A stretch of 64,000 bases of DNA, from contig JADJEH010000001.1 of assembly GCA_016702305.1 (NCBI GenBank), positions 508,368 through 572,367 of the forward strand, written 5' to 3'. The stretch comes from a bacterium (GTDB lineage: Bacteria; Electryoneota; RPQS01). Positions 24,812 through 53,957 of this stretch are shown here, in pieces. Position 1 is the first letter of the stretch. Every line of letters begins with the position of its first letter. Both the position numbers and the translations under genes were made by a program. The notes under the pieces were generated by a model. That model saw nothing but the letters and a program-made list of their open reading frames with translations, was not told the DNA's origin and ran no database searches.

Positions 24812-24842
24812 TCAGCCCGCCCTTTTGGGCGGGCTGATTTGC
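24812..24842 (+). terminator. rho-independent terminator (preceded by a second GC hairpin at ~24770-24788)
   Basis: CAGCCCGCCC-tttt-GGGCGGGCTG followed by ATTTG; upstream hairpin GTCGGGCC-tcc-GGCCCGAC. Confidence 0.6.
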
Positions 24843-24862
24843 TAAGCCTGGAGGCCACGAAA

Positions 24863-27310
24863 ATGTCAACGCGAATTCTATCTGCATTCAATCTTTTGAA
24901 GCGGGTGGGGTTCGCGGTTTTGTTGTATGCGCGTTGCGCCTTTGCGCAGCCCTACGAGCCGACTTATTTGTTGGATGTTACGGGAGGGTACTTGGATTCA
25001 ATTTGCAATCCATGGGATCAAGACGGAGATGGCTTTGAGGATTTTTTCGTCTATGCAGCTTCCGAAGAAGTGCAGGTCGGGATTATTGGCAAGGCTCACG
25101 AGGAGTTAAGGACTTTTGAGTTTGGAAGATTTGACTCGCTGTCGGGTTTGGCTGGTTTGATGCGGCCTTTGATGCGGGATTTACAGTTCCGGCAGGAGAT
25201 GTCAATGGAGATGGGCATGCCGACATCATGCGCACGTTGTGCGTTTGGTACGATGGACTGTGACCTCTATCCCTATTGGGCGGTCCGGGCGTTTCGACAC
25301 CATACCGGACTGGAATGGACCTGTCACAAGTCTGGATCACCAACGTAGGCGACTACAACGGTGATGGCCGTGATGATTATACGAGTCGTCCGTTGAGTGC
25401 GCAGTATTTCGGGTTGTATTTTGGGCAGGAACCGCCGCTGTCGCAGGAGTATGAGTGGGAGCACACTCCCAACCGGAATCACATGGGGTTTGGCGACGTG
25501 AACGGCGACGGGTTCTGGATTTTGGAATGAGCTACTTCATTCACGACTCGCGGATAGAGATGTTCTTGGGCTCGGCGGATGCGACTCCATGCCTTTGGTT
25601 TCTACCAATATGGACCAGACGATCCAGGCCTAATAGAGGCCGGATTGTGGGTGACATTAATGGTGATGGATACGACGACATTGTCGCATACTTTGCCATT
25701 TGAAATGGCGCGCAAGCATGTCTATTACGGACAGCCGAGCTTGATTTTTACTGGGGAAACGGGAATGAAATCGCCGGTTATGTCACACCGCTGGCGCGCG
25801 GACGGATTTGATGACTATGCACTATGACGCCCGAGGTTGGCTGCGGGACCCTCTGAACTCCGGCGTGGATCTGAGTCCACCGAGGCGACCGCCGGTGAAG
25901 GGCGTGGGTGGCTCGGCGCGTGGCGCGCCGGAGCGCACGCGTTGCGGCGGAGGCTCCGGCGGAAATCCCAGCAGCTCGCCTCCGTCCTGGAGATTCCGCT
26001 GGAAGTAACGGGAACGGGAACGCACACGTCACGCTGACCATGCCAACACGCTTGGCGATCGCCACAGTTTTTCGCAAACGGAATTCACGGTCTAACCTGC
26101 GGCTCGAGGGACCCCGCGGAGCGGCGCTCCAAAATTTGCAAGGATACCAAGACGGGGGGCTTCGTGACTTTGACTTCAATCCTAAATCGAATGACATCGC
26201 GCTTCGCTCTATTAGGAACGACGTAAGTATCGCCACTTTCAGGTTGGGGACGAGTTTTCTGGTCGGAGCGCCGGGGGGACGGCCACCCAGTTTTGCGCCT
26301 ATACCTACTATTTCTGGGCGGTCCCGGCGTGTTTGACACGCTTGCAGATTGGGTGGCGACCTGACCACAATGCGATTCACCAACGTAGGGGACTACAACG
26401 GTGAGGCCGGAGATAGTCGCCGTGAGTGCACATTTCGGGTTGTATTTGGGGCGGGCCGGCTGTCCAGGGATGAGGGGCACCCAACCGGAATCACATGGGG
26501 TTGGCGACGTGAACGGCGACGGGTTCTCGGAGGGAATGAGCCCTGGGTGCGGCTCTTTCGGTCCGAAGCAGACTCTGTCCGGTGTTATCCAGCCCAGGAG
26601 AGGTAGGGCAGGATGTTGGCGATGTCAAGGGAGGGTTGACGACGTTTAACACTGTCCTGGTCGGCCAGCGCTGGCCTTGTATCGGGGAATGAAATGGACG
26701 GACCAAGGCTCTGGGGCGATGGATGGCCCAGAGTATGTCACGCCATGGCGACGTCAGCGATGCCTTTGACGACTATGCTTTTACGATAATGAGGCTTGAA
26801 TACCAAATCGAGGTCTGGCTTGGGCGGTAATCCGTTACCCACCGCACCTGCATGGGTTCTTGAGGCCCACGGCATGACTACCCATACCGCATCGGTGAAG
26901 CGGGCGATTTTAACGGAGACGGGATAGATGACTGGTTCTTCTCGGCGTATCACGGTCTCGAAGAGCGTGGCCGCATCATCGTGGTTGCCGGAGACCGCAA
27001 CTTCGGCGTTGCGGCGGATGACAATCCTGCGACAATCCCCGCCGCATTTGTGCTCCATGCCTGTTATCCCAATCCGTTCAACAGCAGTGTGACGATTCCG
27101 CTGGAGGTTACGGGGCCGGAGTCGCAGCACGTCACGCTGACCATTGCCAACACCCTCGTACAGATCGCCTACAGTTTTTCGCAGACGGATTTCACTCCTG
27201 GCCTGCACACGCTGCGCTGGAACGGCAGCGACGCCGCCACTGGACTCTATTTCGTCACCGCACATTCCCATAACGCTCGGCACATACAGAAGATCCTCCT
27301 AATCAAATGA
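24863..27310 (+). pseudogene. decayed FG-GAP/VCBS-repeat protein gene with T9SS C-terminal domain, containing a diverged internal tandem duplication and multiple frameshifts
   Basis: At least 10 short + strand ORFs in all three frames carry pieces of one protein: signal peptide MSTRILSAFNLLKRVGFAVLLYA, FG-GAP calcium motifs (DVNGDGHADI, GDYNGDGRDDY, GDVNGDGF, GDINGDGYDDIV), and a final T9SS tail ..ACYPNPFNSSVTIPLEVTGPESQHVTLTIAN..GLYFVT..KILLIK (26981..27310). Confidence 0.65.
25282..27160 (+). repeat. two diverged tandem copies (~1.07 kb period) of an FG-GAP-repeat plus T9SS-CTD-encoding segment
   Basis: 25335-25525 (caccaacgtaggcgactacaacggtgatggccgtgatgat..catggggtttggcgacgtgaacggcgacgggttctgg) aligns with 26385-26535 with indels; 25995-26060 (gagattccgctggaagtaacggg..cacgtcacgctgacca) aligns with 27085-27150. 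Confidence 0.7.
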
Positions 27311-28670: not shown

Positions 28671-28704
28671 AAGACCCGCTGATTCGTCAGCGGGTCTTTT
28701 TTTG
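28671..28704 (+). terminator. rho-independent terminator after ychF
   Basis: AGACCCGCTG-attcgt-CAGCGGGTCTTTTTTTG. Confidence 0.75.
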
Positions 28705-28828: not shown

Positions 28829-28843
28829 TGGCATGCACTTTGC
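28829..28843 (+). promoter_or_regulatory. sigma-54 (-24/-12) promoter upstream of pilB
   Basis: TGGCAT-gcact-TTGCG, spacing identical to TGGCAC-N5-TTGC consensus; ~70 nt upstream of pilB ATG. Confidence 0.55.
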
Positions 28844-28913
28844 GAACAATTGGCGTGATGCAAAGGCAATCTCCCGCAACGTTGGAAACGGTAAACAGCA
28901 GGCACAAGCATTC

Positions 28914-30611
28914 ATGAGTTCGCGGCTACCGAATCTGCTGATCAGTAACGAACTGATCACGCAAGAGCAGTATCTCATCTTCAAGTCGCGCCAGAAGGAC
29001 TCCGGCAATTCTGTTGTGACCGAACTGACGAAGCTCGGGGTCATCAGCGAAGAACAGATTGCGCAGTTCATCAGCAGCTACTACAGTCTCGAGCTCGTGG
29101 ATCTCGAAAAGACCACCGTGCCCGAGGCCGTGCTGAAACTGTTGTCGAAGGACTTCATCCAGAAGTACCAGGTGCTGCCGCTGACGCGTTCGGGCAAGAC
29201 GCTGCGCGTCGCGCTGGTGGATCCCAGCATTGACTTCGTGCTCGAAGATATCAAATTCATCACGGGCTTCAACGTGCAGCCCGCGGTGTGCACTGAAACC
29301 CAGTTCCTGCGAGCGATTGAGCGTTACTACCAGATGGGCGGAACGCTCAACAAGATCCTCGCGGACATGGGCGACGACAGCAATGTTGAAGTCGTCTCGC
29401 AAAGCAACGACGCCGAGCTTGACCGGCTCAAGGAAGAAGGCGAGACCGCGCCGGTCGTCAAGCTCGTAGATGGCATACTAACCGACGCCGTCAACAAGCG
29501 CGCCTCGGACATCCACCTCGAACCCTACGAAAATCAATTCCGAGTCCGGTTCCGTATTGACGGTGTTCTCATAGAGGTCATGTCGCCGCCTTCGCACTTG
29601 AAAGCGGCGATTGTGTCGCGCATCAAGATCATGGCGAAGCTGAATATCGCCGAGCGCCGCGTGCCGCAAGACGGCCACATCAAAATGAAACTGGGCGACC
29701 GCGGCATTGACTTGCGCGTGTCGTCGCTGCCGACGCTCTTCGGCGAGAAGATCGTGATGCGTATTCTCGACAAGACGAATCTTACCCTTGACTTGAACGG
29801 ATTCGGCTTCAGCGAAAAGGCGCTCTCGGATTTCGAGCGAGCGATCCGCCTGCCGCACGGCTTGATTCTTGTTACCGGACCCACGGGATCGGGCAAGACC
29901 ACCACATTGTACAGCGTCCTTTCGAAGATAAACACGCCGACCGTCAACACGATGACGGCCGAGGATCCCGTTGAGTACAACTTCGCCGGATTGAATCAGG
30001 TACAGGTCAAGGACGACGTCGGTCTGACATTCGCGTCGGCGCTGAAATCGTTCCTGCGGCAGGACCCGGATATCATCATGATCGGCGAGATTCGTGATCT
30101 TGAAACCGGCTCGATTGCCGTGCGCGCCGCACTCACGGGCCACCTTGTGCTCTCCACGCTGCATACAAATTCAGCTTCCGCGACCATCACGCGTATGATT
30201 GACATGGGTATCGAGCGTTTTCTCGTGTCGTCGTCCGTGAATCTGGTGCTTGCGCAGCGATTGCTTCGTAAGATCTGCAAAAAGTGCAAAGTGCCGATTG
30301 ACGTGCATCCGGAGGCGTTGCGCGAAGTCGGGCTTGATCCCGAGCAACTCAAAGGCCACACCTTCTACCATGGCGCGGGCTGCGCGGAATGCAACGGCAG
30401 CGGGTACCGCGGACGAACGGGTATATATGAGGTGATGCCGATGTCCTCTAAAATCCGCGAAATGGTGCTTGATGGCAAAAACACGTATGAAATAGAGGCG
30501 CTTGCCGTGAAGGAAGGAATGTTGACGCTGCGCATGGATGCCTGCGAAAAATTCAAGAACGGCATCACGACTATCCAGGAAGTGCTGCGGATCACGGGCG
30601 AAGGACACTAA
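28914..30611 (+). CDS. pilB: type IV pilus assembly ATPase PilB (GspE family) with N-terminal GspE_N/MshEN-like domain and C-terminal zinc finger
   Basis: Start at MSSRLPNLL within ORF 28815; Walker A GPTGSGKTTTLYS, Asp box, Walker B, His box LSTLHTN, tetracysteine CKKC..x..CAEC; N-terminal ~140 aa T2SSE_N fold. Confidence 0.92.
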   Translation: MSSRLPNLLISNELITQEQYLIFKSRQKDSGNSVVTELTKLGVISEEQIAQFISSYYSLELVDLEKTTVPEAVLKLLSKDFIQKYQVLPLTRSGKTLRVALVDPSIDFVLEDIKFITGFNVQPAVCTETQFLRAIERYYQMGGTLNKILADMGDDSNVEVVSQSNDAELDRLKEEGETAPVVKLVDGILTDAVNKRASDIHLEPYENQFRVRFRIDGVLIEVMSPPSHLKAAIVSRIKIMAKLNIAERRVPQDGHIKMKLGDRGIDLRVSSLPTLFGEKIVMRILDKTNLTLDLNGFGFSEKALSDFERAIRLPHGLILVTGPTGSGKTTTLYSVLSKINTPTVNTMTAEDPVEYNFAGLNQVQVKDDVGLTFASALKSFLRQDPDIIMIGEIRDLETGSIAVRAALTGHLVLSTLHTNSASATITRMIDMGIERFLVSSSVNLVLAQRLLRKICKKCKVPIDVHPEALREVGLDPEQLKGHTFYHGAGCAECNGSGYRGRTGIYEVMPMSSKIREMVLDGKNTYEIEALAVKEGMLTLRMDACEKFKNGITTIQEVLRITGEGH

Positions 30612-30613: not shown

Positions 30614-31528
30614 ATGAGCACAAGGATCGGCCTCTACTTAGAGCGCCTTACGCTGGATGATCTGTTGTTCCTTGAGAGTGAGCTGGAGCGGCGCAAAGAA
30701 AAGTACCGGCGCCAGCATGTCGTGATGGCCGTCCAGAGCGAACAACGACTGCTGACGACACTGAAGCGTGATAAGCTGACGATCATCGCAAAGGAGATGC
30801 GCCGCTACGTGCATGAATGCGCCGTGGCCGGCAATGGCGTAGTCTTGGCGTTCTCGCCGGAATCGTCGCTCATGCTGTTTCGTGACGTAAAGAGCGCGGC
30901 TGCCACCGCCGCGCGGTTGCTCACGACGCTCGCCGATTTGAATGGCAGACTCAAAGCAGAAACATCCAGCATTGCTCTGAAGTTGGGAATGGCGACCGGA
31001 AGTGATGTACTGGCTGCGGGTTCGATGCGCTCGGTGCGACAGTCAGTGCTCGTTAAGCGCGCCGGGCATTGCGCGTGGAAGGCGCCGGCGGGAAGCATGC
31101 TGATGGACGAACACTGTGCGCAGCAATGGGAGCCGCGCAACGAGGCGCTGCGCTTACCCATGGAAGTTGACGGCATTACAATCTATCGCGCAAACCCGGC
31201 GGCGACCAACAATACCACGACCGGCGCGGATGACGACCGTCTAATCGCCTACCTGGATGCTGTGGTCAGTAAAGGCATTTCCACGTTGAAATACTTCCTG
31301 CTGCGTGAAGACACCGCCGATGACGCCGAAGCCTGGACGCAATCGAATGGGCGTGCTGTAATCACGCTCGAAGGATTTGATCCAAGCACCATGAAGAACT
31401 TGTCATTCACGACACGCTGCCCGTTGAATGACTACGCGAACAAGGTGGACGCCATACGCCGGCTAATCAGCGACCGCGGCTTAGGGCTTGTAAAACACGA
31501 AGAGTCAATGCCGATTATCGCGGCCTAA
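30614..31528 (+). CDS. hypothetical protein with a degenerate nucleotidyl-cyclase-like (class III cyclase/GGDEF fold) domain lacking catalytic Asp residues
   Basis: Begins 3 nt after the pilB stop and ends 12 nt before pilT; residues ~35-170 (VVMAV..GNGVVLAFSPESSLMLFRDVKSAAATAARLL..LKLGMATGSDVLAAGSMRSVRQSVLVKRAGHC..) follow the secondary-structure spacing of a cyclase homology domain but with metal-binding Asp positions replaced. Confidence 0.45.
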   Translation: MSTRIGLYLERLTLDDLLFLESELERRKEKYRRQHVVMAVQSEQRLLTTLKRDKLTIIAKEMRRYVHECAVAGNGVVLAFSPESSLMLFRDVKSAAATAARLLTTLADLNGRLKAETSSIALKLGMATGSDVLAAGSMRSVRQSVLVKRAGHCAWKAPAGSMLMDEHCAQQWEPRNEALRLPMEVDGITIYRANPAATNNTTTGADDDRLIAYLDAVVSKGISTLKYFLLREDTADDAEAWTQSNGRAVITLEGFDPSTMKNLSFTTRCPLNDYANKVDAIRRLISDRGLGLVKHEESMPIIAA

Positions 31529-31540: not shown

Positions 31541-32653
31541 ATGTCCGCTAAACTTGACATACGTAAACTTCTGGAAGAGCTCATCGCGGCGCGGGGAAGC
31601 GACTTGCACATCGCCGTGAATAGTCCGCCGCGCGTGCGAGTTGACCAGCAGCTCGTACCGCTGAAGTACGATGCACTTTCACCGGATGACTGCCGCGTAT
31701 TGGCGTACAGCGTACTGACCGACAAGCAGCAGAAAAAGCTCGAGTTGGACTACGAAGTGGACTTTGCTTTCGGAATTGAAGGGTTGTCTCGTTTTCGCGG
31801 CAACATCTTCTTCCAGCGCGGCTCGTTGACGACGGTAATCCGCGCGATTCCGTTCACGATTCCGCAAATGGAGCAGCTTAGACTGCCGCGCATTTGCCAA
31901 GCGTTTCCGAATAAACCCAAGGGATTAGTGCTTGTCACCGGTCCGACAGGATCGGGAAAGTCCACGAGCCTGGCCGCCGTGATTGACCGCATTAACACCG
32001 AACGCCCCGTGCACATCATTACTATTGAAGATCCAGTTGAGTATGTGCATTCTCATAAGCGAGCGTTGGTCAATCAGCGCGAAGTCGGCGCAGATACGAA
32101 GAGCTTCGCAACCGCATTGAAGTTTGTGCTGCGCCAAGACCCGGACGTTATCCTCGTCGGTGAAATGCGCGACCAGGAAACGATTCAGGCGGCGCTTACC
32201 GCAGCGGAGACCGGGCACTTGGTGTTTGCGACATTGCACACCAATTCGGCGACCGAATCCGTCAACCGTATTATTGACGTGTTTCCACCACACCAGCAAG
32301 GGCAGGTGCGCGCACAGCTCTCCATGTCACTGGAGGCTGTCATGACGCAAAAACTAATACCCAAGAAATCCGGGCCTGGCGTTGTGTTGGCTGCGGAGGT
32401 GATGATCTTAACACCGGCAATTCGCGCGTTGATTCGCGAGAATAAGGTGCACGAAATGTACGGTTTGCTGCAAGTGTCGCAGAAATACGGAATGCAAACC
32501 CTGAACATGTCGTTATTCGATCTGGTTATGACCAAGCAAATCAGCCCAGAGCGCGCACTGATGGTGGCGAATGTGCCGGAAGAGTTGCAGCGCATGCTGG
32601 GATTGACTCCGCAGCCCGTGCAAGCTGGCGGATCACGCATTCAGCCGAAGTAA
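31541..32653 (+). CDS. pilT: twitching motility (pilus retraction) ATPase PilT
   Basis: LHI....PP..R..G, Walker A GPTGSGKSTSLAA, EDPVEY, LRQDPDVILVGEMRD, His box, 370 aa. Confidence 0.93.
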   Translation: MSAKLDIRKLLEELIAARGSDLHIAVNSPPRVRVDQQLVPLKYDALSPDDCRVLAYSVLTDKQQKKLELDYEVDFAFGIEGLSRFRGNIFFQRGSLTTVIRAIPFTIPQMEQLRLPRICQAFPNKPKGLVLVTGPTGSGKSTSLAAVIDRINTERPVHIITIEDPVEYVHSHKRALVNQREVGADTKSFATALKFVLRQDPDVILVGEMRDQETIQAALTAAETGHLVFATLHTNSATESVNRIIDVFPPHQQGQVRAQLSMSLEAVMTQKLIPKKSGPGVVLAAEVMILTPAIRALIRENKVHEMYGLLQVSQKYGMQTLNMSLFDLVMTKQISPERALMVANVPEELQRMLGLTPQPVQAGGSRIQPK

Positions 32654-32670: not shown

Positions 32671-33873
32671 ATGCCAGTCTTTGTATATAATGGCCGTGGC
32701 GCAGGCGCCCGACCCGTGTCGGGTGAAATTGAGGCGTCTGACAAGCAGGAGGCTATGTCGAAACTGCGGCAGCGGCGCGTCGTCGTTCAAGACCTGCGCA
32801 GCAAGCCGAAAGATCTCAAAGTCGGTGGAATGGGCGGCGGCGTCGGGACGAAGGACCTCAAGATCTTCGCACGTTTGTTCGGCACGATGATCAATGCCGG
32901 CTTGCCGATCGATCAGTGCTTGCAAATCCTTGTGGACCAGATGCAAAACAAGAGATTCAGACGCACAATCGCTGAAGTGCATAATCAGGTCGCAGGCGGC
33001 GAATCGCTCTCAGAGGCGATGAGCAAGCACAAAGCGGTGTTCGACAACTTGTTTGTGCACATGGTTGCCGCAGGTGAAACGGGCGGCGCGTTGGCCATGG
33101 TTTTCAATCGTCTGGCAATTTATCTCGAAAAGGCGGATGCGCTAAAACGCAAAGTCAAAGGCGCGATGATCTATCCTGCCGTGATCGCATGCGTTGCCCT
33201 AAGCGCGACGATATTCCTGCTGATCAAGGTCATCCCGGTGTTTGCAGGAATGTTCAAAGATCTTGGCGCGGAATTGCCGAAGCCGACTCAATTCGTGCTG
33301 GCATTGTCAGACCTCGTGCAGAAGACATTTCTACCCGGCATGGGTGTTTTGATTATCGCGTTCTTTGTCTTTCGCAAGTGGCACAAAACTGCCAACGGCA
33401 AAGCGACGGTAGATAAGTTTCTATTGAAAACGCCGGTGATCGGCGGTGTGATCCGCAAAACGGCCGTCGCTCGATTCACGCGCACGCTCGGCGTGCTGAT
33501 CTCGTCGGGCGTTCCGATTCTACATGGGCTTGAGATCACGGCCAAGACGGCGGGTAACACGGTGATTCAAAAGGCGGTGGATCGAGTGCGCAAGGAAGTT
33601 AGCGAAGGTCGCAACATCACACAGCCGCTCATGGAGACCGCTGTCTTCCCGGCGATGGTGTGCCAGCTCATCGCTGTTGGTGAGCAGACCGGACGACTCG
33701 CGGAAATGCTTGAGAAGATCGCGGATTTTTATGACGAAGAAGTTGACGCCGCGGTCGCCGCGATGACGTCCTTGATCGAACCCGTTGTCATCGTGCTGAT
33801 GGGCGCGGTCATCGGCGGTATGCTTGTGTCCATGTACTTGCCGATGTTTGACATGATCGGCGCGATTAAGTAA
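32671..33873 (+). CDS. pilC: type IV pilus inner-membrane platform protein PilC (GspF family)
   Basis: Two T2SSF repeats (..MINAGLPIDQCL.. and ..LISSGVPILHGL..), 3 TM segments, 400 aa. Confidence 0.92.
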   Translation: MPVFVYNGRGAGARPVSGEIEASDKQEAMSKLRQRRVVVQDLRSKPKDLKVGGMGGGVGTKDLKIFARLFGTMINAGLPIDQCLQILVDQMQNKRFRRTIAEVHNQVAGGESLSEAMSKHKAVFDNLFVHMVAAGETGGALAMVFNRLAIYLEKADALKRKVKGAMIYPAVIACVALSATIFLLIKVIPVFAGMFKDLGAELPKPTQFVLALSDLVQKTFLPGMGVLIIAFFVFRKWHKTANGKATVDKFLLKTPVIGGVIRKTAVARFTRTLGVLISSGVPILHGLEITAKTAGNTVIQKAVDRVRKEVSEGRNITQPLMETAVFPAMVCQLIAVGEQTGRLAEMLEKIADFYDEEVDAAVAAMTSLIEPVVIVLMGAVIGGMLVSMYLPMFDMIGAIK

Positions 33874-33905: not shown

Positions 33906-35279
33906 ATGCTACGAGAGAAAATCCTGCTGGTGGATGACGAGCCCGGTCTGGCGTCATTCCTTGAAGAGGTCGTGCGAGAGGAAGGATTTCGGGTGCGTAA
34001 AGCGCAATCGGCGGCCGAGGCTCTGAGTGCGCTGGAGGAAGAGGCCTTCCAGCTCGTGATCACCGACTTGCGCATGCCGGAAGTTGACGGGCTTGAGCTG
34101 TTGCGCCGGGTGCGGGAGCGTGATCCGCAGCTCGGGGTTATCGTCATGACGGCCTTCGCCTCACTCGAGACGGCGGTGGAGGCCCTGCGGCTCGGCGCCA
34201 TGGACTACATCACAAAGCCGCTGCACGTTCAGGAGATTCAGGTCGTGCTGCGGAAGGCGGTTGAGAGCCTTGACCTCAAACGTGAGAATCGGCGGCTCAA
34301 GGCAAAGCTAAGTGAGGAGAGCGGAGAGCCTCGCATCGTGGGCAGTTCCATGGAGACGCGTTCGATGCTTGAGCTTGTGCGCCGAGTGGCGCCTTCGGAT
34401 TCGACCATTCTCATTACGGGAGAATCGGGAACCGGCAAGGAACTCATTGCACAGGTCCTGCATTTCTTTTCGGAACGGGCACGCGGTGAATTCGTGACTG
34501 TGAACTGCGCGGCGCTGCCGGATACCTTGCTGGAGAGTGAGCTATTCGGCCATCGGCGCGGCAGTTTCACCGGAGCGGTGCGCGACAAGGACGGCCTTTT
34601 TAAAGTCGCGAGCGGCGGAACGCTGTTTCTGGATGAAATCGGTGATATGTCGGCCGCGCTGCAAGTGAAGCTGTTGCGAGCCTTGCAAGAGCGTGAAGTG
34701 CTGCCGATTGGCGCGACGAAACCGGTGAAGATTGATGTGCGGGTCATTGCTGCTACAAATGCCGATCTCGAGCGCAAACAGCAAACGGGTGAGTTTCGGC
34801 CGGACCTATATTATAGGTTGTCGGTGATTCCCATTCATATTAAGCCGCTGCGCGAGCGCACGGGCGACATTCACGAGCTGGCAGCGTTCTTCCTGGAACG
34901 TGCGTGCAAGAAGGCGGGTGTGAGCACGCGCCGCTTCGCTCCCGAGACGATGCAGCGACTGATGCAGTATAAGTGGCCCGGCAACGTGCGTGAGCTGGAG
35001 AATACGATTGAGCGCTTGGTGATTTTGAGTGACCATGAAGTCATTGAGCCAGCGAGCCTGCCGGAGCGTTTGGGCGGCGGAGTCGCTGCCGCACCGTCGC
35101 AGCCGTATGCAAGCTCTGCAAGTCGTACACTTGATGATATGGAGCGGACCTACTTGCTGCAGGTGCTCGAAGAGTCCGGTTGGCAGAAAAAACGTGCTTC
35201 GGAGATTTTGGGAATTGATCCATCAACCATCTACCGCAAATTGCAACGTTACGGAATTAAGCCTCCGGCAGGTGTATGA
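33906..35279 (+). CDS. pilR: sigma-54-dependent response regulator (NtrC family; PilR-like)
   Basis: REC domain (LLVDDEPG..D..MP..DG), AAA+ sigma-54 activator domain with GESGTGKELIA and GAFTGA motif (GSFTGA), C-terminal Fis-type HTH. Confidence 0.9.
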   Translation: MLREKILLVDDEPGLASFLEEVVREEGFRVRKAQSAAEALSALEEEAFQLVITDLRMPEVDGLELLRRVRERDPQLGVIVMTAFASLETAVEALRLGAMDYITKPLHVQEIQVVLRKAVESLDLKRENRRLKAKLSEESGEPRIVGSSMETRSMLELVRRVAPSDSTILITGESGTGKELIAQVLHFFSERARGEFVTVNCAALPDTLLESELFGHRRGSFTGAVRDKDGLFKVASGGTLFLDEIGDMSAALQVKLLRALQEREVLPIGATKPVKIDVRVIAATNADLERKQQTGEFRPDLYYRLSVIPIHIKPLRERTGDIHELAAFFLERACKKAGVSTRRFAPETMQRLMQYKWPGNVRELENTIERLVILSDHEVIEPASLPERLGGGVAAAPSQPYASSASRTLDDMERTYLLQVLEESGWQKKRASEILGIDPSTIYRKLQRYGIKPPAGV

Positions 35280-35402: not shown

Positions 35403-35417
35403 TGGCACATGTGTTGC
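35403..35417 (+). promoter_or_regulatory. sigma-54 (-24/-12) promoter of pilA
   Basis: TGGCAC-atgtg-TTGCT, exact consensus, ~65 nt upstream of pilA ATG; matches the adjacent sigma-54 activator. Confidence 0.8.
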
Positions 35418-35483
35418 TCAATGGTAAGCTGAACGTGGAAGTATCACCAAGTGCCCATACACAAGAGAAGCTAGGAGACCACC

Positions 35484-35900
35484 ATGCTTAAGGCCATCCG
35501 TAACAAGAAGAACCAAAAGGGATTCACGCTCATCGAATTGTTGGTCGTGATCGTGATCATCGGCATTCTGGCCGCCGTGGCCGTGCCGCGATTCATGGGC
35601 GCGCAGGATCGCGCTCGCATTGGCGCCGCGCGTGCCGACCTTGACCTGTTCCGTCAGGCTCTCGGTATGTTCGAAATTGACAATGCCGACTATCCTGCCG
35701 CGTTAACGTTGGTCACCGCCGCGACCGTGCTGGTTGACCCGCAAGGCAACCCGTATATGTCACTGCCGACGGGCGACAACTTCGCGGCCTTCACGTACAC
35801 CTATGACGGTGCCGCGAACCCGACGTCGTACAGCATTGACGTTGAGTGCAACGACAACCAGGGGACCGTGTTGACGGCGACACCGGAAGGCATTCAGTAA
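35484..35900 (+). CDS. pilA: type IV major pilin PilA (prepilin with N-terminal methylation motif)
   Basis: [26 protein letters not shown] class III signal peptide with G(-1)F(+1)..E(+5); 138 aa; C-terminal Cys pair absent. Confidence 0.92.
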
Positions 35901-36092: not shown

Positions 36093-36107
36093 TGGCACAT
36101 GCATTGC
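36093..36107 (+). promoter_or_regulatory. second consensus sigma-54 promoter, upstream of fis-like gene and giant Ig-repeat protein
   Basis: TGGCAC-atgca-TTGCA at 36093; sequence closely resembles the pilA promoter core (TGGCACATG.....TTGC). Confidence 0.75.
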
Positions 36108-36194
36108 ACTCGTAAGCTTGGGCTCGAATCGGATTTTCCCCGACCGTCGAGCCGAGCAAATTTTCAGTTCAGTCAATGAATAGGGTAGACGCTT

Positions 36195-36464
36195 TTGAAC
36201 GCATTAGCAACCCTCGGAGATACGTCGAATGATGTGAGTGCATCTGCTTGCGGTAGCGACCCGCAGGACCAGATGCAGATCTCATTGCCGTCGGAGACGG
36301 TGAGCATCAAACAGGCGCTGGCACGAGTCATTCCGGAAGTGGAGAGTGCGCTCATTAAACGCGCGCTCGAGCTGACAGGAAACAATCGAACCCGGGCCGC
36401 GAAGATTCTGGAGATTTCTCACCGCTCGCTACTCTACAAGCTCAAAAGTTACAATTGTGGATAA
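36195..36464 (+). CDS. small Fis-family DNA-binding protein (HTH_8)
   Basis: TTG start per ORF track (or internal ATG giving 63 aa); C-terminus ..IKRALELTGNNRTRAAKILEISHRSLLYKLKSY is a Fis/NtrC-type HTH. Confidence 0.6.
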   Translation: MNALATLGDTSNDVSASACGSDPQDQMQISLPSETVSIKQALARVIPEVESALIKRALELTGNNRTRAAKILEISHRSLLYKLKSYNCG

Positions 36465-36483
36465 AGTGCAAGGAGTGCATGTG

Positions 36484-39400
36484 ATGCAGCGCCGTTTGCC
36501 ATTCAGTTTCTGGTTGCCCATGGGCACGTTGCTCAGCGTTGCCCTGTGGTACGGTTGCGAACAGAAGGGAGATTTGAGTCCGGTGTCCTCTGCACGGGAC
36601 AATCTCGCTTTCATAGACACCATCATCATTGATCCGCCGGTTATTAGCCCATTGGGCACGGCGTGGATCGAAGCGCGTGTCGTTAACGAACAGCAGGAGC
36701 CCGCGGCCGGTGAAGATGTTCGCTTCACGGCGACGCGCGGAACGTTCGGCGAAGATGGACCTGACGTGACCATTCCCGCCGACAACTACGGCGTGGCCCG
36801 CACATTATATACGGCTCCCGCTGATACGGGCAACGTGTCCTTGCACATCGAGTTGGTCAGCATGCAGACGGCGCAATCGCGCTCGCTGCCAGTTCAAGTC
36901 GGTGCGGGATCGCAAGACGGCCTGTTAAGCGTAAGCGCTGACGAAGACACGCTGTTCGCGGACAACGGTGCTTCCACCACGCAGGTCCGGGCTCGAGTGC
37001 GCAATGCGCTGAATAACCCCATCGGCGGCGCGGAAGTTACCTTCTCGACGTCGCGCGGCGTGATTACTTCACCGAGCGTCACCGACGCGCAGACCGGCGC
37101 GGCCACCGCCACGCTAACGTCAACAGAAGCGATCGGGCGCGCCATGGTGGTTGCAACGTACAATGGAAATTCAGACACGGTCTACGTGGAATTCCTCGAA
37201 CCTTTCGAGGCTTCGGCGATTCACGTGAACACGTCCCTGTCATCGCTGACGGCGGGCATGGATTCGTCGGTCATTAGCGCGCGGGTCATTGGCGAAGACG
37301 GCCAAACACTGCGTACAAATGTCATGGTGACGTTTGCCGCCAACGCCGGATCGTTCACCGCACAGGCTGTGACAACGGTGAATGGTGTGGCGACGACGAC
37401 CTATCGCGCTCCAGTCACGGCCGGTCCGGTGACCATTGTAGCTTCAACCGGTACCGTTACGGGCGAAGCGGACGTTACCGTTAATCCCGGTGCGTTAGCG
37501 TCGTTGACACTGACAACGGGCGCCGACACCCTCGACGCTGACAATGCCAGCGAAACCATGGTCCGTGCACTCGCTCGTGACACCTACGGGAATCCCGCGC
37601 TGCCCGGAACCATTGTAGCGTTCAGCAGCGTCAATGGTTCGATTACCGAATCGGCATCCACCGACGCTTCCGGATACGCCAACGCGACGTTCCGCGCGGG
37701 CTTGAATTCAGGCAATGCCACAGTCACGGCGCTTAACGGCAGTATCGGCGGTAGTGCAGCAATCTACCTGCAGATGACCGAGGCCGAAGCTCTGAATATG
37801 ACGGTTACACCCCGCCAACTTGTGGCCGACGGCCAAAGCACTGCGATACTGCGTGCGCAAGTCCTTGACGGCGATAATCGCCCCGTGTCCAACGGAACGA
37901 TTGTTACTTTTACGTCGGAGCTCGGTCAGCTCGATGGCACAGGCGCCATTCATGATGGTGGAAAGCAGAGCCCGACTTGGAAGAATTCCGGTAACAGCGC
38001 CTTGGCGCGCACGCAAACTGCGCGGCTGCACGGCCACAACAAGGCCATGCGTGGCCCGGAACGTCGCGGCGATCCGGCCATGAGTGTTTTCAACGCTGTG
38101 ACGCAAGACGGCTATGCCGTGGCGACGCTGACGAGTTCTACGACGGCGGCCAACGACTTGATCTCGGCCGTGGTCAACGGGCTGACGGACGAAGAGACCG
38201 TTACATATAGTGCAGGAACGGCGGCGAGCGTGGAAGTGACCCCTGCGGATGCAGATTTGCCCGCGGACGGTGCATCGAGCACGCCGGTTGTCTGTCGCGT
38301 CTATGACGCTTTTGGTAATCCGCTGGGCGGCGGTGTCGCGATTGCCGTGACGAGCACGATCGGTACGCTGTTGCCGACGTCCGGCTTCACCAATGCGAGC
38401 GGCACGTTCACCACGAATTTGACGAGCGCGCGCCAGGTGGGTAACTGCGCGATCGTGGCCAATGCAGGCGCGGCGAGCGGCTATGCCGAAGTAGATTTCA
38501 CGGCACCGGAAGTCGCCGGACTGGTGCTTACCAGCACATCATCGTCCATTCTAGCGGATGGATACTCGTCAACGGTCGTCGTAGCGACGGTGCGTGACCA
38601 GCTCGGTCTCCCCGTCAGCGGACGCACTGTGGCCTGGTCCGCCGGCAATGGCATCGGCACACTGCAAGTGATTACCGGCGTCACCGACGCGAACGGCACG
38701 GTTAGCGCAGAGTTCTTCAGCGGTGCGTCAAACGTTGACGCGTCCCAAGTTGTGGATGCCGCTGCGGAAGGCGAAGAAGGATCCTACGCCATCACGATGC
38801 GCGGCGTTACCGTGCTCGTCAACGTGGAAGCGGACAATCTGCCCGCCAACGGCCAGGCGACTACTGACGTTCATGCAACGATACGTGAAACATCGAGCGG
38901 TTTGGCTGTGCCGAGCGCACCGGTCCGCTTCGCGACGACGAACGGCTCGATCGAGCAGTTCGCGGAGACGAACGAAAGCGGCGTGGCGACGGCTGTCTAT
39001 CAGGCGGGCAATGACGCAGGTGAGGTTCATATCAGCGCATCGTTTGGCGACACGCTTCGTGCACAGTCCATGATCACGCTGACGAACACCGACGCCGAAC
39101 AGATTGTCGTGACGATGGGCGATTCGGAACTATTAGCCAACGGTGAATCGTCCACGGAGGTCAGCGCATTCGTGACCGATGAGGGCGGCTATCCGGTGGA
39201 AAATGTCGAAGTCGTGTTCACGTCCGTTGCCAACGGTTCGTTCGAACCGGTGACGACCTTTACTGACGCTGCTGGCTTTGCGCGCTCTGAATTCATCGCC
39301 GTGGCGTCGGAGAACGATCTTGTCGCTCCGATTGACGTCGCCATCGAACGAAGCGCAATTCAGGATACCTTGACATTGCGCGGCGTGACTTTGCATGCGT

Positions 39401-42400
39401 ACAGTGACGCGACGCTGTTGCCCGCGAATGGCGCGGCGACCGCGACGATAACGGTCAACCTCCGCGAGACGAGCAGCACGATCGCGATATCGGGTGCAAC
39501 AATCCTGTGCGGCGCGAACATGGGTTCGATTGCCGCGAGCGGCATCACCAGTGAAGCCGGTGTTGCAACCTTCACGTATACTTCGGGAGTTGAAGTGGGC
39601 GACGCGAGTATCATCGTGCGCTACGGCAACCAGTTGCGTGATACGGTGACGATCTCTATGTTCTCGCCCTCGCCATCCGGATTGGACCTTGAGTCCGATC
39701 AGATGTCGTTGTTGGCCGACGGTCAGAGCTCGGCGAATCTGAGCTGCCGACTGTTGGATCAATCGGGCAGTCCGATTGCGAACACGCAGATTGTCTGGAG
39801 CGTGAGCGGTCCGGGCAGCCTGACGGATGGCATGAGCTACACGAACTCCGACGGCTATGCGACGAATGTTTACAACAGCGCAGGCCGCGCCACGGATGCG
39901 ACGACCATTGTGCGGGCGCATTCGCAGTCCGCGTCTGATTCCGTGTCGCTTGCGTTGCGTGGCGTGACGGTCGTCTCATCTGCACAATTCAATGCGATGC
40001 CGGCAAACGGCATTTCAAGCAACACGATTACGGCTCAAGTTCGTGAGACAACCAGTCTCGTTGCGGTGTCGGGACGAGACGTGACGTTTGGCACGAGCCT
40101 CGGTTCCATACCGAACACGGCTGTTACGAACTCGTCGGGTATGGCCACCGTGAATCTTGTAGCCGGAAGCACGAGCGGCAATGCGCTGGTCGTGTGCACG
40201 ATGGGTCCGCAACTTGGTGATTCGGTGATGGTCAACATGTATGCGCCAACGGCGCAGAACGTGGCGGTTGTCCCGCAGACCAATACGGTGCGTGCCGACG
40301 GATTAAGCAGTGTACCGGTTACGGCCACGGTCAGCGACGCCATGGGTGTACCATTGGCCGATGCGACCATCACCTGGACGGCAAGTGGAATCACTTTCAC
40401 GCCGGTGACGACCGTGACCGGACCCGACGGCGTGGCGATGCTGAATTTCGCTCCGGCGGGCCGTTCGACCAATCTGAGTACTACCTTGACTGCGGCTGCC
40501 GGTACGGCGCAAGGCACAACCGCGATTACGCTGCGCGGCGTCACAGTGACGACGACGGCGATTCCGGACATGGTCATTGCGGACGGCAACTCGACCTCAG
40601 AGATTCGCGTGCATGTTTACGAGACCGTTTCGCAGATCGCGATTCCTGAAGCGACGGTCTATTTCGGGACAAATCCCGGTACGATACCGCAATCGGCTGA
40701 AACGGATGCGAGCGGCGTCGCGTCGGTAAACCTTGAGGCTTCAACGACGACTGGCACCGCCACGGTAACGGCAACGTATGGTCAGACGCTTACTGCGCAG
40801 ACCAGTGTCCTGTTTGCCGCTTCGACGCCTACCACGCTTTCGTTGACGGCATCGCCGACGATTCTGTTTGCTGACAACAACTCGGCTTCAACGCTGACCG
40901 CGAATGTGACGGACCAGAACGGCAACCCGGTGCCCGATGGCACGCAGGTACGATTCAGCATTCCGCCGCAATCAGGATCGCTCGAGAATCTGCGGACTAC
41001 AGTCGGCGGCGTGGCGAGCAATTCGTTGACGTCCAGCTCGAGTCCTGACACGTTCTATGTCGCAGCGTGGGCCGAGGATAACCCGGTCGTGCGCGACAGC
41101 GTTCAAATCATCTACCGCGTCGGCGATCCGTCTGTAGTGATCATGTCGGCGATGACCGATAGCTTGCTGGCGAACGGCATCGCAACTGACAGCATCACCG
41201 CACGGGTGACGGATGCCGTGGGGCACCCGCTGCCCAATGTGGAAGTGCAGTTCAACGCCACCATAGGCAACATCACGGCCAGCCGCGTTACGAACGCACA
41301 GGGCAACGCGACCGTACCGTTTAGTTCGTCGCAAACGGGCACATCCATTGTGACGGCCCGCGCCGGGTCGGCGGTGGCGAGTTACAACATCTTCCTGTTG
41401 CCCGGCCTGCCGAACAGCATCCAGTTGACATTCCTGCCGAATTCGGTTGGCGTGCGCGGAAGCGGACGCAACGAAACGCTGTTGATTACGGCGACCGTCA
41501 ACGATGCGAACAACAATCCAGTCGTGGATGGAACGCCCGTGACGTTTAACATCAACAACTCCCCCGGCGGCGGTGACTTCCTGTCGAGCGGGAACGCGAT
41601 TCCGACGATTAACGGTCAAGCGACGGTCGCCTACAATTCGGGCACCGTGAGCGGTACGGCCCGCGTGCGAGCGGTCTGCGCCGGCGTGAGCGCCGTATCC
41701 ACGGAAATTTTGATTCACGCTGGACCGCCGTATATCGAGAACATTGGCGACGGCTGTCTGTCGAGTCACATGGCAATCGGCGCGAGTCCGTGCAATATGT
41801 TCGGCATGGATATCGTGGGCGAGAGCGTCCAGTTGGTTTGCCTCGTGGGCGATCGTTATAACAACCCCGTGACGCCGGGTACCGCCGTGTACTTCACGAC
41901 ATCCGGCGGCGTAGTGACCACAGCCACAGGTTATACCGACTCGGCCGGCTTTGCGCGCGTCACGCTGTACAGCGGCAATCCGCTGCCGACCGTGAGCCGT
42001 TGGCTGAACACCTTGACCGATCCGAATCTGGGCACAACGGTGCTTTGTACCGACGTGCCGGATCAGAATGGCATGGCCAAGGTCATGGTAAAGACGGCCG
42101 GTGTTGACGCCACGGGCGACAGCGTCTGGGTGTGGGCCACGACAAACGTCGTGTTCGATTACAGCCAGCCGATCCTGAACCTCCGAGAAGTGACTGTCAA
42201 CGGCGACCCGGACGAGCGCACACTGTTCATCGGCGAAAATGCGTTGATTCGCTTCGCACTGTATGACAGCAACTACTGGCCGATGGTGTCGGGTACGACC
42301 GTGACCTTCAGCGCGAGCGCAGGCAACGTCTACCCGAGTGAAATCGAAATCGGCTGTCCGGGCGACACCACCTACACGGTCAGCTTCTTCAACAACATGA

Positions 42401-42552
42401 CGACGAACGATGACGACGCCGCCACCCCGGTGCTGATCAACGTTTCCGCAGAGTACGGCGCGGCCTATGCGTTCACTGAGACGTTCACGTTGCGCGCGGC
42501 ATTCAGCGGTGCGGCGCCACCGCCGTCCCGCGATGATGAGACCATTCAATAA
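36484..42552 (+). CDS. giant (2031 aa) surface lipoprotein built from ~20 tandem bacterial Ig-like (Big_1/invasin-type) domains
   Basis: Lipoprotein signal MQRRLPFSFWLPMGTLLSVALWYGC; ~95-aa modules repeating ..LLANG.S.T.V.A.V.D..GNP.....V.F....G.....T.TDA.G.A.A.F... about 20 times; C-terminal non-repeat ~350 aa. Confidence 0.8.
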   Translation: MQRRLPFSFWLPMGTLLSVALWYGCEQKGDLSPVSSARDNLAFIDTIIIDPPVISPLGTAWIEARVVNEQQEPAAGEDVRFTATRGTFGEDGPDVTIPADNYGVARTLYTAPADTGNVSLHIELVSMQTAQSRSLPVQVGAGSQDGLLSVSADEDTLFADNGASTTQVRARVRNALNNPIGGAEVTFSTSRGVITSPSVTDAQTGAATATLTSTEAIGRAMVVATYNGNSDTVYVEFLEPFEASAIHVNTSLSSLTAGMDSSVISARVIGEDGQTLRTNVMVTFAANAGSFTAQAVTTVNGVATTTYRAPVTAGPVTIVASTGTVTGEADVTVNPGALASLTLTTGADTLDADNASETMVRALARDTYGNPALPGTIVAFSSVNGSITESASTDASGYANATFRAGLNSGNATVTALNGSIGGSAAIYLQMTEAEALNMTVTPRQLVADGQSTAILRAQVLDGDNRPVSNGTIVTFTSELGQLDGTGAIHDGGKQSPTWKNSGNSALARTQTARLHGHNKAMRGPERRGDPAMSVFNAVTQDGYAVATLTSSTTAANDLISAVVNGLTDEETVTYSAGTAASVEVTPADADLPADGASSTPVVCRVYDAFGNPLGGGVAIAVTSTIGTLLPTSGFTNASGTFTTNLTSARQVGNCAIVANAGAASGYAEVDFTAPEVAGLVLTSTSSSILADGYSSTVVVATVRDQLGLPVSGRTVAWSAGNGIGTLQVITGVTDANGTVSAEFFSGASNVDASQVVDAAAEGEEGSYAITMRGVTVLVNVEADNLPANGQATTDVHATIRETSSGLAVPSAPVRFATTNGSIEQFAETNESGVATAVYQAGNDAGEVHISASFGDTLRAQSMITLTNTDAEQIVVTMGDSELLANGESSTEVSAFVTDEGGYPVENVEVVFTSVANGSFEPVTTFTDAAGFARSEFIAVASENDLVAPIDVAIERSAIQDTLTLRGVTLHAYSDATLLPANGAATATITVNLRETSSTIAISGATILCGANMGSIAASGITSEAGVATFTYTSGVEVGDASIIVRYGNQLRDTVTISMFSPSPSGLDLESDQMSLLADGQSSANLSCRLLDQSGSPIANTQIVWSVSGPGSLTDGMSYTNSDGYATNVYNSAGRATDATTIVRAHSQSASDSVSLALRGVTVVSSAQFNAMPANGISSNTITAQVRETTSLVAVSGRDVTFGTSLGSIPNTAVTNSSGMATVNLVAGSTSGNALVVCTMGPQLGDSVMVNMYAPTAQNVAVVPQTNTVRADGLSSVPVTATVSDAMGVPLADATITWTASGITFTPVTTVTGPDGVAMLNFAPAGRSTNLSTTLTAAAGTAQGTTAITLRGVTVTTTAIPDMVIADGNSTSEIRVHVYETVSQIAIPEATVYFGTNPGTIPQSAETDASGVASVNLEASTTTGTATVTATYGQTLTAQTSVLFAASTPTTLSLTASPTILFADNNSASTLTANVTDQNGNPVPDGTQVRFSIPPQSGSLENLRTTVGGVASNSLTSSSSPDTFYVAAWAEDNPVVRDSVQIIYRVGDPSVVIMSAMTDSLLANGIATDSITARVTDAVGHPLPNVEVQFNATIGNITASRVTNAQGNATVPFSSSQTGTSIVTARAGSAVASYNIFLLPGLPNSIQLTFLPNSVGVRGSGRNETLLITATVNDANNNPVVDGTPVTFNINNSPGGGDFLSSGNAIPTINGQATVAYNSGTVSGTARVRAVCAGVSAVSTEILIHAGPPYIENIGDGCLSSHMAIGASPCNMFGMDIVGESVQLVCLVGDRYNNPVTPGTAVYFTTSGGVVTTATGYTDSAGFARVTLYSGNPLPTVSRWLNTLTDPNLGTTVLCTDVPDQNGMAKVMVKTAGVDATGDSVWVWATTNVVFDYSQPILNLREVTVNGDPDERTLFIGENALIRFALYDSNYWPMVSGTTVTFSASAGNVYPSEIEIGCPGDTTYTVSFFNNMTTNDDDAATPVLINVSAEYGAAYAFTETFTLRAAFSGAAPPPSRDDETIQ

Positions 42553-53943: not shown

Positions 53944-53957
53944 CGAGGAGTAATTCG

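Follow-up and report, generated by a model that had tools for sequence, protein, structure and literature searches.

The choice between PilB-driven extension and PilT-driven retraction of type IV pili is still an open question, and few cofactors of these motors are known, among them PilZ, FimX, CpiA and phage peptides. In Myxococcus/Geobacter-type clusters, the genes pilB, pilT and pilC are contiguous; the original prediction for the locus described here took such contiguity to be the norm, which holds for clusters of this type only and not as a general rule. A conserved gene situated exactly between those of two opposing motors would readily be suspected of coordinating them. Among the protein cofactors that control PilB are PilZ and FimX (PMC11656802; PMC5595344). 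The latter, found together with PilZ in Pseudomonas and Xanthomonas, bears a degenerate GGDEF domain, binds PilB and promotes pilus assembly (PMC5595344; PMC11656802). It has a multidomain REC-PAS-GGDEF-EAL architecture and uses the EAL domain to sense c-di-GMP. A 2024 review of PilB cofactors lists no cyclase-like one (PMC11656802), and our literature search returned neither a pseudo-cyclase tied to type IV pili nor a pilB or pilT from Calditrichota.

The second point of reference is the class III adenylyl and guanylyl cyclases (PF00211), exemplified by Spirulina CyaC (1wc1), Mycobacterium avium Ma1120 (4wpa) and Synechocystis Cya2 (2w01). In pseudo-heterodimeric cyclases such as mammalian adenylyl cyclase C1/C2 and soluble guanylyl cyclase alpha/beta, each dimer combines one dead and one live site. 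The degenerate site of these heterodimers binds forskolin or nucleotides, and the retained dead pocket can serve as a regulatory binding site.

Gene content of the pilus motor locus

The window, a stretch of 64,000 nucleotides of bacterial DNA, carries on its + strand (as do all features given below) a 304-aa open reading frame with an ATG start at 30614..31528. This genuine gene, here termed X, encodes a degenerate class III cyclase-fold protein, as judged from the reading frame, its homologues, the modelled structure, a fold search and hhalign. As predicted, it is wedged between pilB and pilT, with a PilB and a PilT-family ATPase as flanking products. The pilB gene (28914..30611) encodes a type IVa pilus extension ATPase (TIGR02538, 731 bits; PF00437) that includes an MshEN domain (PF05157). 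Its reading frame is open from 28815, and tblastn from residue 1 gave 88–92% identity; the start is most likely the ATG at 28914, which yields a protein of homologue length (565 aa), rather than the first ATG of the frame at 28815. Downstream of X lie the retraction ATPase gene pilT (31541..32653; TIGR01420, 477 bits), the platform protein gene pilC (32671..33873; PF00482; NF052606, 465 bits), a pilR-like gene for a sigma54-dependent response regulator (33906..35279; Response_reg, Sigma54_activat and HTH_8) and the major pilin gene pilA (35484..35900; N_methyl and T2SSG).

A terminator-like hairpin after ychF (28671..28698), whose 12-bp stem contains 7 GC pairs and precedes a T-run, is the upstream limit of the pilB transcription unit. 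Between this hairpin and pilB, some 70 nt ahead of the pilB start, is a candidate sigma54 −24/−12 element, TGGCAT-N5-TTGCG (28829..28844). It has two mismatches to TGGCAC-N5-TTGCW, and since matches this good are no more frequent than in shuffled sequence, it is simply a lead. The sigma54 −24/−12 promoter match upstream of the pilin gene (35403..35418; TGGCACATGTGTTGCT) has no mismatch. An Rfam search of the window detected no RNA family, riboswitches included.

Both junctions of X are tight. The gap to pilT is 12 nt long, as predicted, and accommodates a GAGGAG ribosome-binding site; the gap from pilB is 2 nt (TAA tc ATG) and not the 3 nt originally counted. From these two gaps and the lack of any strong terminator-like site on the + strand within pilB..pilR, we infer that X is co-transcribed with its neighbors. 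A chance open reading frame is ruled out by 20 homologues (E 1e-55 to 1e-192) together with a pN of ~0.3 against a pS of ~0.78. Because all available pairs are saturated at synonymous sites, dN/dS is not computable and pN versus pS is given in its place; dN itself amounts to 0.34–0.41. Judged from these substitution values, X is evidently under purifying selection. It nonetheless diverges fast: between loci X is 51–58% identical where PilB, PilT and PilC are 85–93% identical, and it evolves 4–6 times faster than these near-invariant proteins. Such a rate is unusual for a tight stoichiometric motor partner, and to that extent speaks against an accessory role.

Domain architecture and the degenerate active site

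The AlphaFold model of X (pLDDT 79.6) begins with a helix, continues with a class III cyclase domain (residues 33–193) and ends in a small alpha/beta domain. Its elements follow the order beta1-alpha-beta2-beta3-alpha-beta4-alpha-beta, reproducing the beta-alpha-beta-beta-alpha-beta spacing that had been read from the sequence for the central region. A Foldseek search of the PDB with this model, which could have found no similarity of the kind, instead revealed a clear cyclase-fold likeness: each of the best 50 matches is a class III adenylyl or guanylyl cyclase (E 4e-10 to 2e-7), with TMt values of 0.62–0.83 against single-domain targets, led by CyaC at E 4e-10 and with Ma1120 at TMt 0.83. 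The fold of X in this model is thus that of class III nucleotidyl cyclases rather than that of GGDEF proteins.

Sequence comparison reaches the same family from afar. The window protein retrieved nothing meaningful from Pfam, NCBIfam or the PDB by sequence, with no Pfam family at E ≤ 1 and a score below the PF00211 gathering score; none of 21 members of the X family matches PF00211 at E ≤ 10 in a Pfam scan, and the family profile found nothing in the PDB. Searched exhaustively with the family profile, a set of 1.84 billion representatives yielded only 23 proteins, and the matches from outside the family, P0035 (E 1.9e-8), P0041 and P0042, all carry PF00211. Aligned with hhalign to seven cyclase domains, the X family scores a probability of 98% (E 2e-13), and short-form members keep a DIxxGF-like beta1 motif. 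On this evidence of remote homology, X evidently descends from class III cyclases, with which it shares fold and topology; at the column aligned with the second metal site an acid is kept, though as Glu and after a Pro.

The N-terminal segment, residues 1–32 (30614..30709), is an amphipathic helix (helices 3–10 and 14–30 in the model) that runs straight into beta1. By inferred comparison, this resembles signaling cyclases, in which a transducer helix likewise enters beta1 directly. It is the best-kept segment between long and short forms of the family, with a mean pairwise identity of 0.69, and the window protein has 17–19 of 32 residues in common with the short forms. The degenerate cyclase homology domain, residues 33–193 (30710..31192), is supported by Foldseek, hhalign (98%), the extended alignment and column contents. 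It is followed by a variable, low-confidence linker at residues 194–205 (31193..31228; pLDDT <50 at 197–203; mean pairwise identity 0.23).

The last domain, residues 206–297 (31229..31504), has alpha-beta-beta-beta-alpha-beta topology and bears the motifs STLKY and GLGLVKHE (domain model pLDDT 78.5). Missing from the short forms P0026, P0028 and P0043–45, it is an addition relative to class III cyclases and has no significant structural neighbor: searched alone against PDB structures, it has no match at E<1e-3. The weak best matches of its core (residues 224–287) are COMM/COMMD-like modules (8esd, 8f2r, 9q6a), which are obligate dimerization units (E 6e-3 to 0.1; TM 0.46–0.52; short targets). 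These scores are sub-significant, sequence similarity is absent, and the X domain has an extra N-terminal helix and C-terminal strand; the modeled likeness to COMM is a lead and does not assign the domain.

The four peptides on which the original prediction was built are all present: VVLAFSPESS at residues 76–85, AARLLTTLADLN at 99–110, IALKLGMATGSDVLA at 120–134 and VLVKRAGHCAWKA at 145–157. X has replacements at five of six residues canonical for catalysis in class III cyclases, and the same five residues are absent from all long forms. The first metal-binding aspartate, at the end of beta1, is Q41, a glutamine in 19 of 19 long-form members. The register at this column comes from the extended hhalign alignment and from the short relatives P0026 and P0028, whose aspartate in the same column (VLAMDIATGF) both fixes the alignment and indicates descent from a canonical site. 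The substrate-specifying Lys and Asp/Thr (Glu/Cys in guanylyl cyclases) align with A79 and V141. The transition-state Asn and Arg of alpha4 (N-x-A-x-R) correspond to K148 and H152, with Gln at 152 in most homologues, an assignment obtained from transitive alignments via P0035 to 3mr7 together with hhalign. The sixth position differs. P82-E83 aligns with the G-D of the beta2-beta3 hairpin that supplies the second metal aspartate, so that a proline precedes the metal-2 residue E83; this residue is Asp in most homologues, and an acid (Asp or Glu) occupies the column in 19 of 21 members. The prediction that both metal aspartates are substituted is therefore only half right, as the first is lost in all long forms while the second metal position remains acidic.

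Compared with class III cyclases, the beta1-alpha1 phosphate loop of X is seemingly two residues shorter, although this is a low-confidence region of the alignment. Together with the five replaced residues, it argues that X is catalytically dead as a cyclase, in keeping with the prediction and well supported at the sequence level. The beta4-beta5 arm, through which cyclases dimerize, is about four residues shorter and predicted to be helical, which speaks against an X dimer. Across the wider family, the metal-1 column holds Q, D, W or N, and the metal-2 acid is lost in P0026 and P0029. Such variable metal-site columns speak against conservation of any ligand chemistry, and lend nothing to the case for protein binding.

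Conservation within X is concentrated in the remains of the active site. Mean pairwise identity reaches 0.71 in beta2-beta3 and 0.73 from beta4 to alpha4, compared to ~0.52 in the rest of the domain; together with the N-helix, these former active-site and dimer-interface elements are, by alignment, the best-kept parts of the protein, and all three segments are candidate functional sites. The former active-site elements contain polar residues that are invariant or near-invariant among long forms (K123, D131, S137, R139, R142, S144 and R149), several of which remain so when short forms are added. All 19 long forms have an acid, Asp or Glu, at residue 43.

Distribution and pilus linkage of the family

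The X family numbers ~25 homologues, every one annotated as “hypothetical,” from a few uncultured Calditrichota-like bacteria known as metagenome-assembled genomes. Since it is absent from Pfam and NCBIfam, defining it would improve the annotation of such genomes; its reach is limited by its confinement to a few uncultured lineages. The expected synteny is borne out: each homologue with readable flanks sits between pilB and pilT. This arrangement recurs at every recovered locus with interpretable flanks, in about eight lineages whose PilB proteins are 71–92% identical, short forms included. The full order ychF-pilB-X-pilT-pilC is seen in L001–L009, L011, L015 and L016, and pilB-X-pilT fragments in L010 and L014; on the P0020 contig, gene calls alone place X between an unassigned 563-aa upstream call and a short downstream fragment. 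A scan of genome contigs with two peptide patterns recovered at least five X loci, a lower bound because the patterns are specific to long forms. X junctions are very short or overlapping throughout (about −17 to +64 nt), and X is kept in the same place even where YchF is only 52–61% identical.

Inspection of the flanks of P0035 and P0041, the nearest PF00211 relatives, found no pilus linkage, so that this linkage is specific to the X family, which is fixed in a pilus motor operon. Because its carriers are all fairly related uncultured genomes, the synteny may partly mirror shared ancestry and not functional coupling.

Possible roles at the pilus motor

X belongs to a small unnamed family confined to the position between pilB and pilT in a few uncultured bacteria, and is thus probably a new pilus-motor accessory protein. 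On balance, we lean toward the reading that it is a lineage-restricted type IVa pilus motor accessory protein built on a degenerate class III cyclase domain. That it acts on PilB and PilT as a nucleotide or protein-interaction sensor, as first proposed, is plausible. X would form a head-to-tail dimer, by analogy with all class III cyclase domains, with oligomerization possibly aided by the N-terminal helix and by the beta-beta-beta-alpha module of the C-terminal domain. The helix, in entering beta1 directly, would resemble the coiled-coil transducer element of signaling cyclases. The dimer would be produced in stoichiometric proximity to PilB and PilT and could bind either hexameric ATPase or both, or the site on PilC/PilM where these dock, and thereby tune recruitment or the switch between extension and retraction, without making any nucleotide.

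By analogy, X would resemble FimX as a motor-associated regulator with a degenerate palm-type cyclase domain. The two differ in that X has a class III cyclase domain with neither EAL nor PilZ, is encoded within the motor operon itself, and is tied to the motors by genomic linkage alone. Pfam and NCBIfam searches detected in X none of the PilZ, EAL/GGDEF or GNAT domains of the known PilB cofactors PilZ, FimX and CpiA. X would add class III cyclases to the enzyme families that have given rise to bacterial pseudo-enzymes acting as regulators or structural components.

The former active site may also have been retained as a ligand receptor, its degenerate dimer-interface pockets binding ATP/GTP, a cNMP or a cyclic dinucleotide unconverted and relaying their occupancy to PilB/PilT. 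This would refine the accessory role rather than exclude it. Conservation of the former active-site elements within an otherwise fast-evolving protein, the (near-)invariant polar residues listed above and a second metal site acidic in 19 of 21 members are all congruent with such a receptor, as is the precedent of the dead site in heterodimeric cyclases. A further precedent is FimX with c-di-GMP (PMC5595344). We nevertheless consider it unlikely. At both positions that specify the base, X has a small or hydrophobic residue (A79, V141), the phosphate loop is apparently shortened, though in a poorly aligned region, and no known c-di-GMP- or cNMP-binding motif or domain was detected in X. Variation of the metal-1 column among Q, D, W and N and loss of the metal-2 acid in P0026 and P0029 imply that no single ligand chemistry is kept family-wide. 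PilB, moreover, has an MshEN domain of its own. The X pocket is, like the dead site of pseudo-heterodimers, devoid of catalysis, but no active partner is encoded nearby, and in a homodimer both sites would be dead. More doubtful still is a specific scheme in which X is a dimeric, stand-alone pseudo-cyclase: a nucleotide second messenger would occupy its two dead interfacial pockets, and its conserved N-helix would dock onto the PilB and/or PilT hexamer to select the motor that engages PilC. If true, X would represent an unrecognized class of type IV pilus motor regulators, an operon-encoded extension/retraction switch unlike anything in the models based on Pseudomonas, Myxococcus or Neisseria.

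Conceivably, X is not dead at all, but a non-canonical cyclase or nucleotidyl-transferase that employs relocated residues (such as E43, E83, K148 and R149) to generate a signal locally, at the pilus motor. The conserved acids at 43 (in 19 of 19 long forms) and 83 would suit such an enzyme, and P0028 retains Asp1, the site-2 Glu and the transition-state Arg column; migrated catalytic residues are described in reviews for some apparent pseudo-enzymes (PMC10211241). Nevertheless, we regard activity as highly improbable, given that five of six canonical residues are gone from the window protein and all long forms, that X seemingly has a shorter phosphate loop and has an altered beta4-beta5 arm, that catalytic columns differ between subgroups, and that a scan at E ≤ 10 matched no member to PF00211.

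An irrelevant passenger, the decaying remnant of a cyclase gene tolerated in the operon, could diverge much faster than every neighbor (51–58% versus 85–93% identity), be as rare as X (23 cluster representatives in 1.84 billion) and dispense with its C-terminal domain in some lineages. This reading is already disfavored and very hard to sustain: the reading frame is intact and of constant length (301–310 aa) in all long-form genomes, pN lies well under a saturated pS, ~42 columns are invariant among 20 mainly long-form sequences (23 with short forms included), and X has held its position and tight junctions in lineages whose YchF is only 52–61% identical.

Descent from a degenerate GGDEF diguanylate cyclase like FimX or CdgA, the other half of the “class III cyclase/GGDEF” fold first proposed, is scarcely credible despite the palm-like core common to both groups and the precedent of degenerate GGDEF proteins as pilus regulators (PMC5595344): membership in PF00990 is rejected by the absence of a Pfam match and of a GG[DE]EF hairpin and by 0 GGDEF proteins among the best 50 structural matches, while the cyclase half stands, as the remote sequence matches bear PF00211, not PF00990, and the beta2-beta3 hairpin SP[DE] (F-S-P-E-S in X) aligns with the G-D of cyclases rather than with the GG[DE]EF turn.

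Gene X and its place in the pilus operon

Gene X is a 304-codon ORF with an ATG start (30614..31528, + strand) that lies, as originally predicted, between pilB and pilT; all four peptides quoted in that prediction are found in its product. Upstream PilB (TIGR02538, 731 bits) carries T2SSE and MshEN domains, and downstream follow, in order, a PilT-family ATPase (TIGR01420, 477 bits), PilC, a sigma54-dependent response regulator and a pilin. The pilB start is probably at 28914 rather than at the first ATG of its ORF, because the resulting 565 aa match the length in all homologues. Between the pilB stop (TAA, 30609-30611, + strand) and the X start codon lie 2 nt instead of the 3 nt first claimed; between the X stop and the pilT ATG lie the predicted 12 nt, which contain GAGGAG. 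A strong terminator-like hairpin (28671-28698) lies 3′ of the upstream ychF, and the lack of any comparable site on the + strand within pilB..pilR is compatible with co-transcription of these genes.

The pilB-X-pilT position is fixed. X sits between pilB and pilT at every recovered locus with readable flanks. The order ychF-pilB-X-pilT-pilC-pilR-pilA recurs at nine loci in at least six close genomes, a Calditrichota MAG with a PilB of 75% identity has ychF-pilB-X-pilT-pilC-pilS, and a further fragment (L010) carries pilB-X-pilT. Short forms of 208-232 aa that lack the C-terminal domain, in three subgroups, occupy the same slot in clusters whose PilB is ~71-72% identical where compared. At the junctions across loci, the genes lie up to 64 nt apart at one extreme and apparently overlap by 17 nt at the other. 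On the contig of the relative P0020, the gene calls around X, a 563-aa one and a short downstream fragment, are known by length only. Two loci with the same Calditrichota-type ychF-pilB-X-pilT cluster (L007 and L009, PilB ~90-92% identical to that of the window) come from MAGs titled "uncultured Alphaproteobacteria bacterium", probably a mislabel or placeholder taxonomy.

Cyclase ancestry and the catalytic residues

An AlphaFold model built on a 20-sequence alignment (pLDDT 79.6, pTM 0.65) predicts two N-terminal helices (residues 3-10 and 14-30), a cyclase-like domain of order beta1-alpha-beta-beta-alpha-beta-alpha-beta-beta, with strands at 33-42 (beta1), 76-80, 84-89, 122-131, 162-165 and 179-193 and helices at 52-72, 92-113 and 138-156, then a disordered linker and a C-terminal alpha-beta-beta-beta-alpha-beta domain (206-294). 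Foldseek matches this model to 168 PDB entries at E<=1e-3, and all of the top 50 are class III adenylyl or guanylyl cyclases, among them CyaC (1wc1, E 4e-10), Ma1120 (4wpa, TMt 0.83), Cya2, RhGC and CyaB. The model shows X to have a class III cyclase fold, bearing out the cyclase-type fold first proposed; an origin from GGDEF, the diguanylate cyclase domain named alongside it, is disfavoured, GGDEF proteins being absent from these top 50 matches. Modelled on its own (pLDDT 78.5), the C-terminal domain has no significant structural neighbor in a fold search; its best hits, weak ones at E 6e-3 to 0.1, are beta-beta-beta-alpha modules of the COMM type that serve in dimerisation.

No X family member scores against PF00211, the Pfam class III cyclase model, even at E<=10. 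The family profile matches three PF00211-bearing proteins, P0035 (E 1.9e-8), P0041 and P0042, and when it is compared with a profile of seven cyclase domains, the match has a probability of 98% (E 2e-13); at the level of sequence profiles, descent from cyclases is shown. The nearest PF00211 relatives checked, P0035 and the membrane cyclase P0041, have no pilus linkage. P0035 (L012 6001-7422), the closest of all, contains two tandem cyclase-like domains, the first with a D-I-A-G-H motif replacing N-x-A-x-R, in a defence-island-like context of AbiEii, HATPase_c_3 and Mrr_cat-NACHT genes.

Three agreeing alignments (HMM alignments, P0035 to 3mr7, and hhalign) map the catalytic positions. The first metal Asp corresponds to Q41 (Gln in 19/19 long forms), the substrate Lys to A79 (a column nearly always Ala), the specificity Asp/Thr to V141 (mostly Val/Ile/Leu), the transition-state Asn to K148 (mostly Lys/Arg) and the transition-state Arg to H152 (Gln in most homologues). 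The claim that both metal Asp are substituted thus stands for the first and fails for the second, whose G-D is P82-E83 in X, with Asp or Glu in 19 of 21 family members. Confidence of hhalign is low for the beta1 register, which is corroborated by the short forms P0026 and P0028: in both, the Q41 column holds Asp as part of a VLAMDIATGF motif that looks canonical. Compared to cyclases, X appears to have lost 2 residues from the phosphate loop that follows beta1, and its beta4-beta5 arm is shorter by ~4. By this mapping, X is a cyclase descendant whose catalytic set is lost, five of six residues being gone; an active non-canonical enzyme, for which the acidic residue at the second metal position might speak, is disfavoured. 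Judged as a class III cyclase, X has the fold and the homology, lies below the Pfam threshold and is negative in four of five catalytic-residue tests; the fitting name is degenerate cyclase-homology-domain protein rather than cyclase.

Selection on X and its possible role

The X family is small and without a name. A word-indexed search across 5.8 billion proteins yielded 20 homologues, with lengths of 301-310 aa and identities of 37-99%; each is annotated "hypothetical protein" and comes from a MAG labelled "bacterium" or Calditrichaeota/Calditrichota. An HMM search run exhaustively over 1.84 billion cluster representatives matched no more than 23 proteins at E<=1e-3. Compared with orthologous loci, the dN of X is 0.34-0.41, 4-6 times the 0.06-0.09 of pilB, pilT and pilC; identities are 51-58% versus 85-93% for PilB/PilT/PilC in closer genomes, and 34-35% versus 75-76% (PilB) and 81% (PilT) in more distant ones. 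A decaying passenger gene might diverge at such a pace, and is disfavoured: pN is ~0.3 against a saturated pS of ~0.78, which marks X as a real gene under purifying selection.

Mean pairwise identity is 0.69 in the N-helix, 0.71 in the beta2-beta3 hairpin and 0.73 in the beta4..alpha4 segment, versus ~0.52 in the remaining cyclase-like domain, 0.23 in the linker and 0.59 in the C-terminal domain. Comparison of window X with short forms again singles out the N-helix (17-19/32 identical) and residues 120-160 (20-21/41). In class III cyclases, the hairpin, arm and alpha4 elements make up the active site and dimer interface. X may form a dimer as related cyclases do, and would serve the PilB/PilT motors as an accessory or regulatory protein, acting on them via its N-helix and former active-site/interface surfaces. 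Its dead pockets could possibly bind a ligand; the metal-site columns vary between subgroups (Q/D/W/N), which argues against one conserved ligand chemistry.

PilB cofactors in a 2024 review are PilZ, FimX, CpiA and phage peptides, with no cyclase-like protein among them (PMC11656802). Functionally, the nearest analogue is FimX, a PilB-binding protein with degenerate GGDEF-EAL make-up (PMC5595344); X belongs to another domain family, has another architecture and is encoded at a different location. X is a new, so far nameless pseudo-enzyme that has the fold of nucleotide cyclases and is associated with the type IV pilus motor; its function is entirely inferred. The original observation largely holds once two points are corrected, and its interpretation is partly supported. 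The genomic arrangement is striking and offers a testable candidate for motor coordination, restricted to a few uncultured lineages.

Other features of the pilus region

At its N-terminus (28914-29100), PilB has an MshEN domain (PF05157, 78.5 bits); it scores only 27.7 bits against the NCBIfam c-di-GMP-binding-motif model (cut-off 38), so that c-di-GMP binding by window PilB is uncertain. Upstream (24839-26650, + strand), short overlapping ORFs in different + frames with repeated calcium-binding-like motifs (GDYNGDGRDDY, GDVNGDGF, GDINGDGYDD) resemble a single repeat gene of FG-GAP/VCBS type that frameshifts have split; it would be a pseudogene, or else the long-read MAG has indels from assembly here.

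A second pilus block (47365-56433, + strand) begins with another PilT-like ATPase (47365-48474) and ends with a secretin (55207-56433). Between the two are encoded an unusual fusion of MshEN with a DnaA-type AAA domain (49071-50255), a kinase of PAS-HATPase type (50592-51755) and a fused PilM-PilN (51790-53511). Several ORFs scattered among these genes (43731-44501, 44511-46172, 48365-49078) match no Pfam family.

The sigma54 -24/-12 consensus (TGGCAC-N5-TTGC) is matched perfectly at two sites on the + strand, one (35403-35418) ~65 nt 5′ of pilA and the other (36093-36108) 5′ of a small ORF with a Fis-type HTH and of a giant adhesin gene, an arrangement that fits control by the adjacent PilR-like activator. 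The small ORF (36195-36464, + strand, 89 aa), which lies between pilA and the adhesin gene and whose C-terminal Fis-type HTH was recognised by eye, may be a truncated remnant: three related loci (L003, 11611-12528; L004; L008) have at this position a 305-aa sigma54-activator gene (Sigma54_activat + HTH_8) without receiver domain, and L001 has no gene call there. The 2031-aa adhesin (36457-42552, + strand), directly 3′ of the pilin gene, is rich in Big_1/invasin-D3-type Ig repeats (Pfam on the L001 and L003 orthologues), and its synteny with the pilus cluster is conserved. The major pilin itself (pilA, 35484-35900) is unusually conserved, at 87-94% identity to L001-L009, in which synonymous sites elsewhere are saturated; its pS of 0.49-0.59, clearly below the 0.68-0.84 of neighboring genes, suggests strong codon-usage or other constraint.
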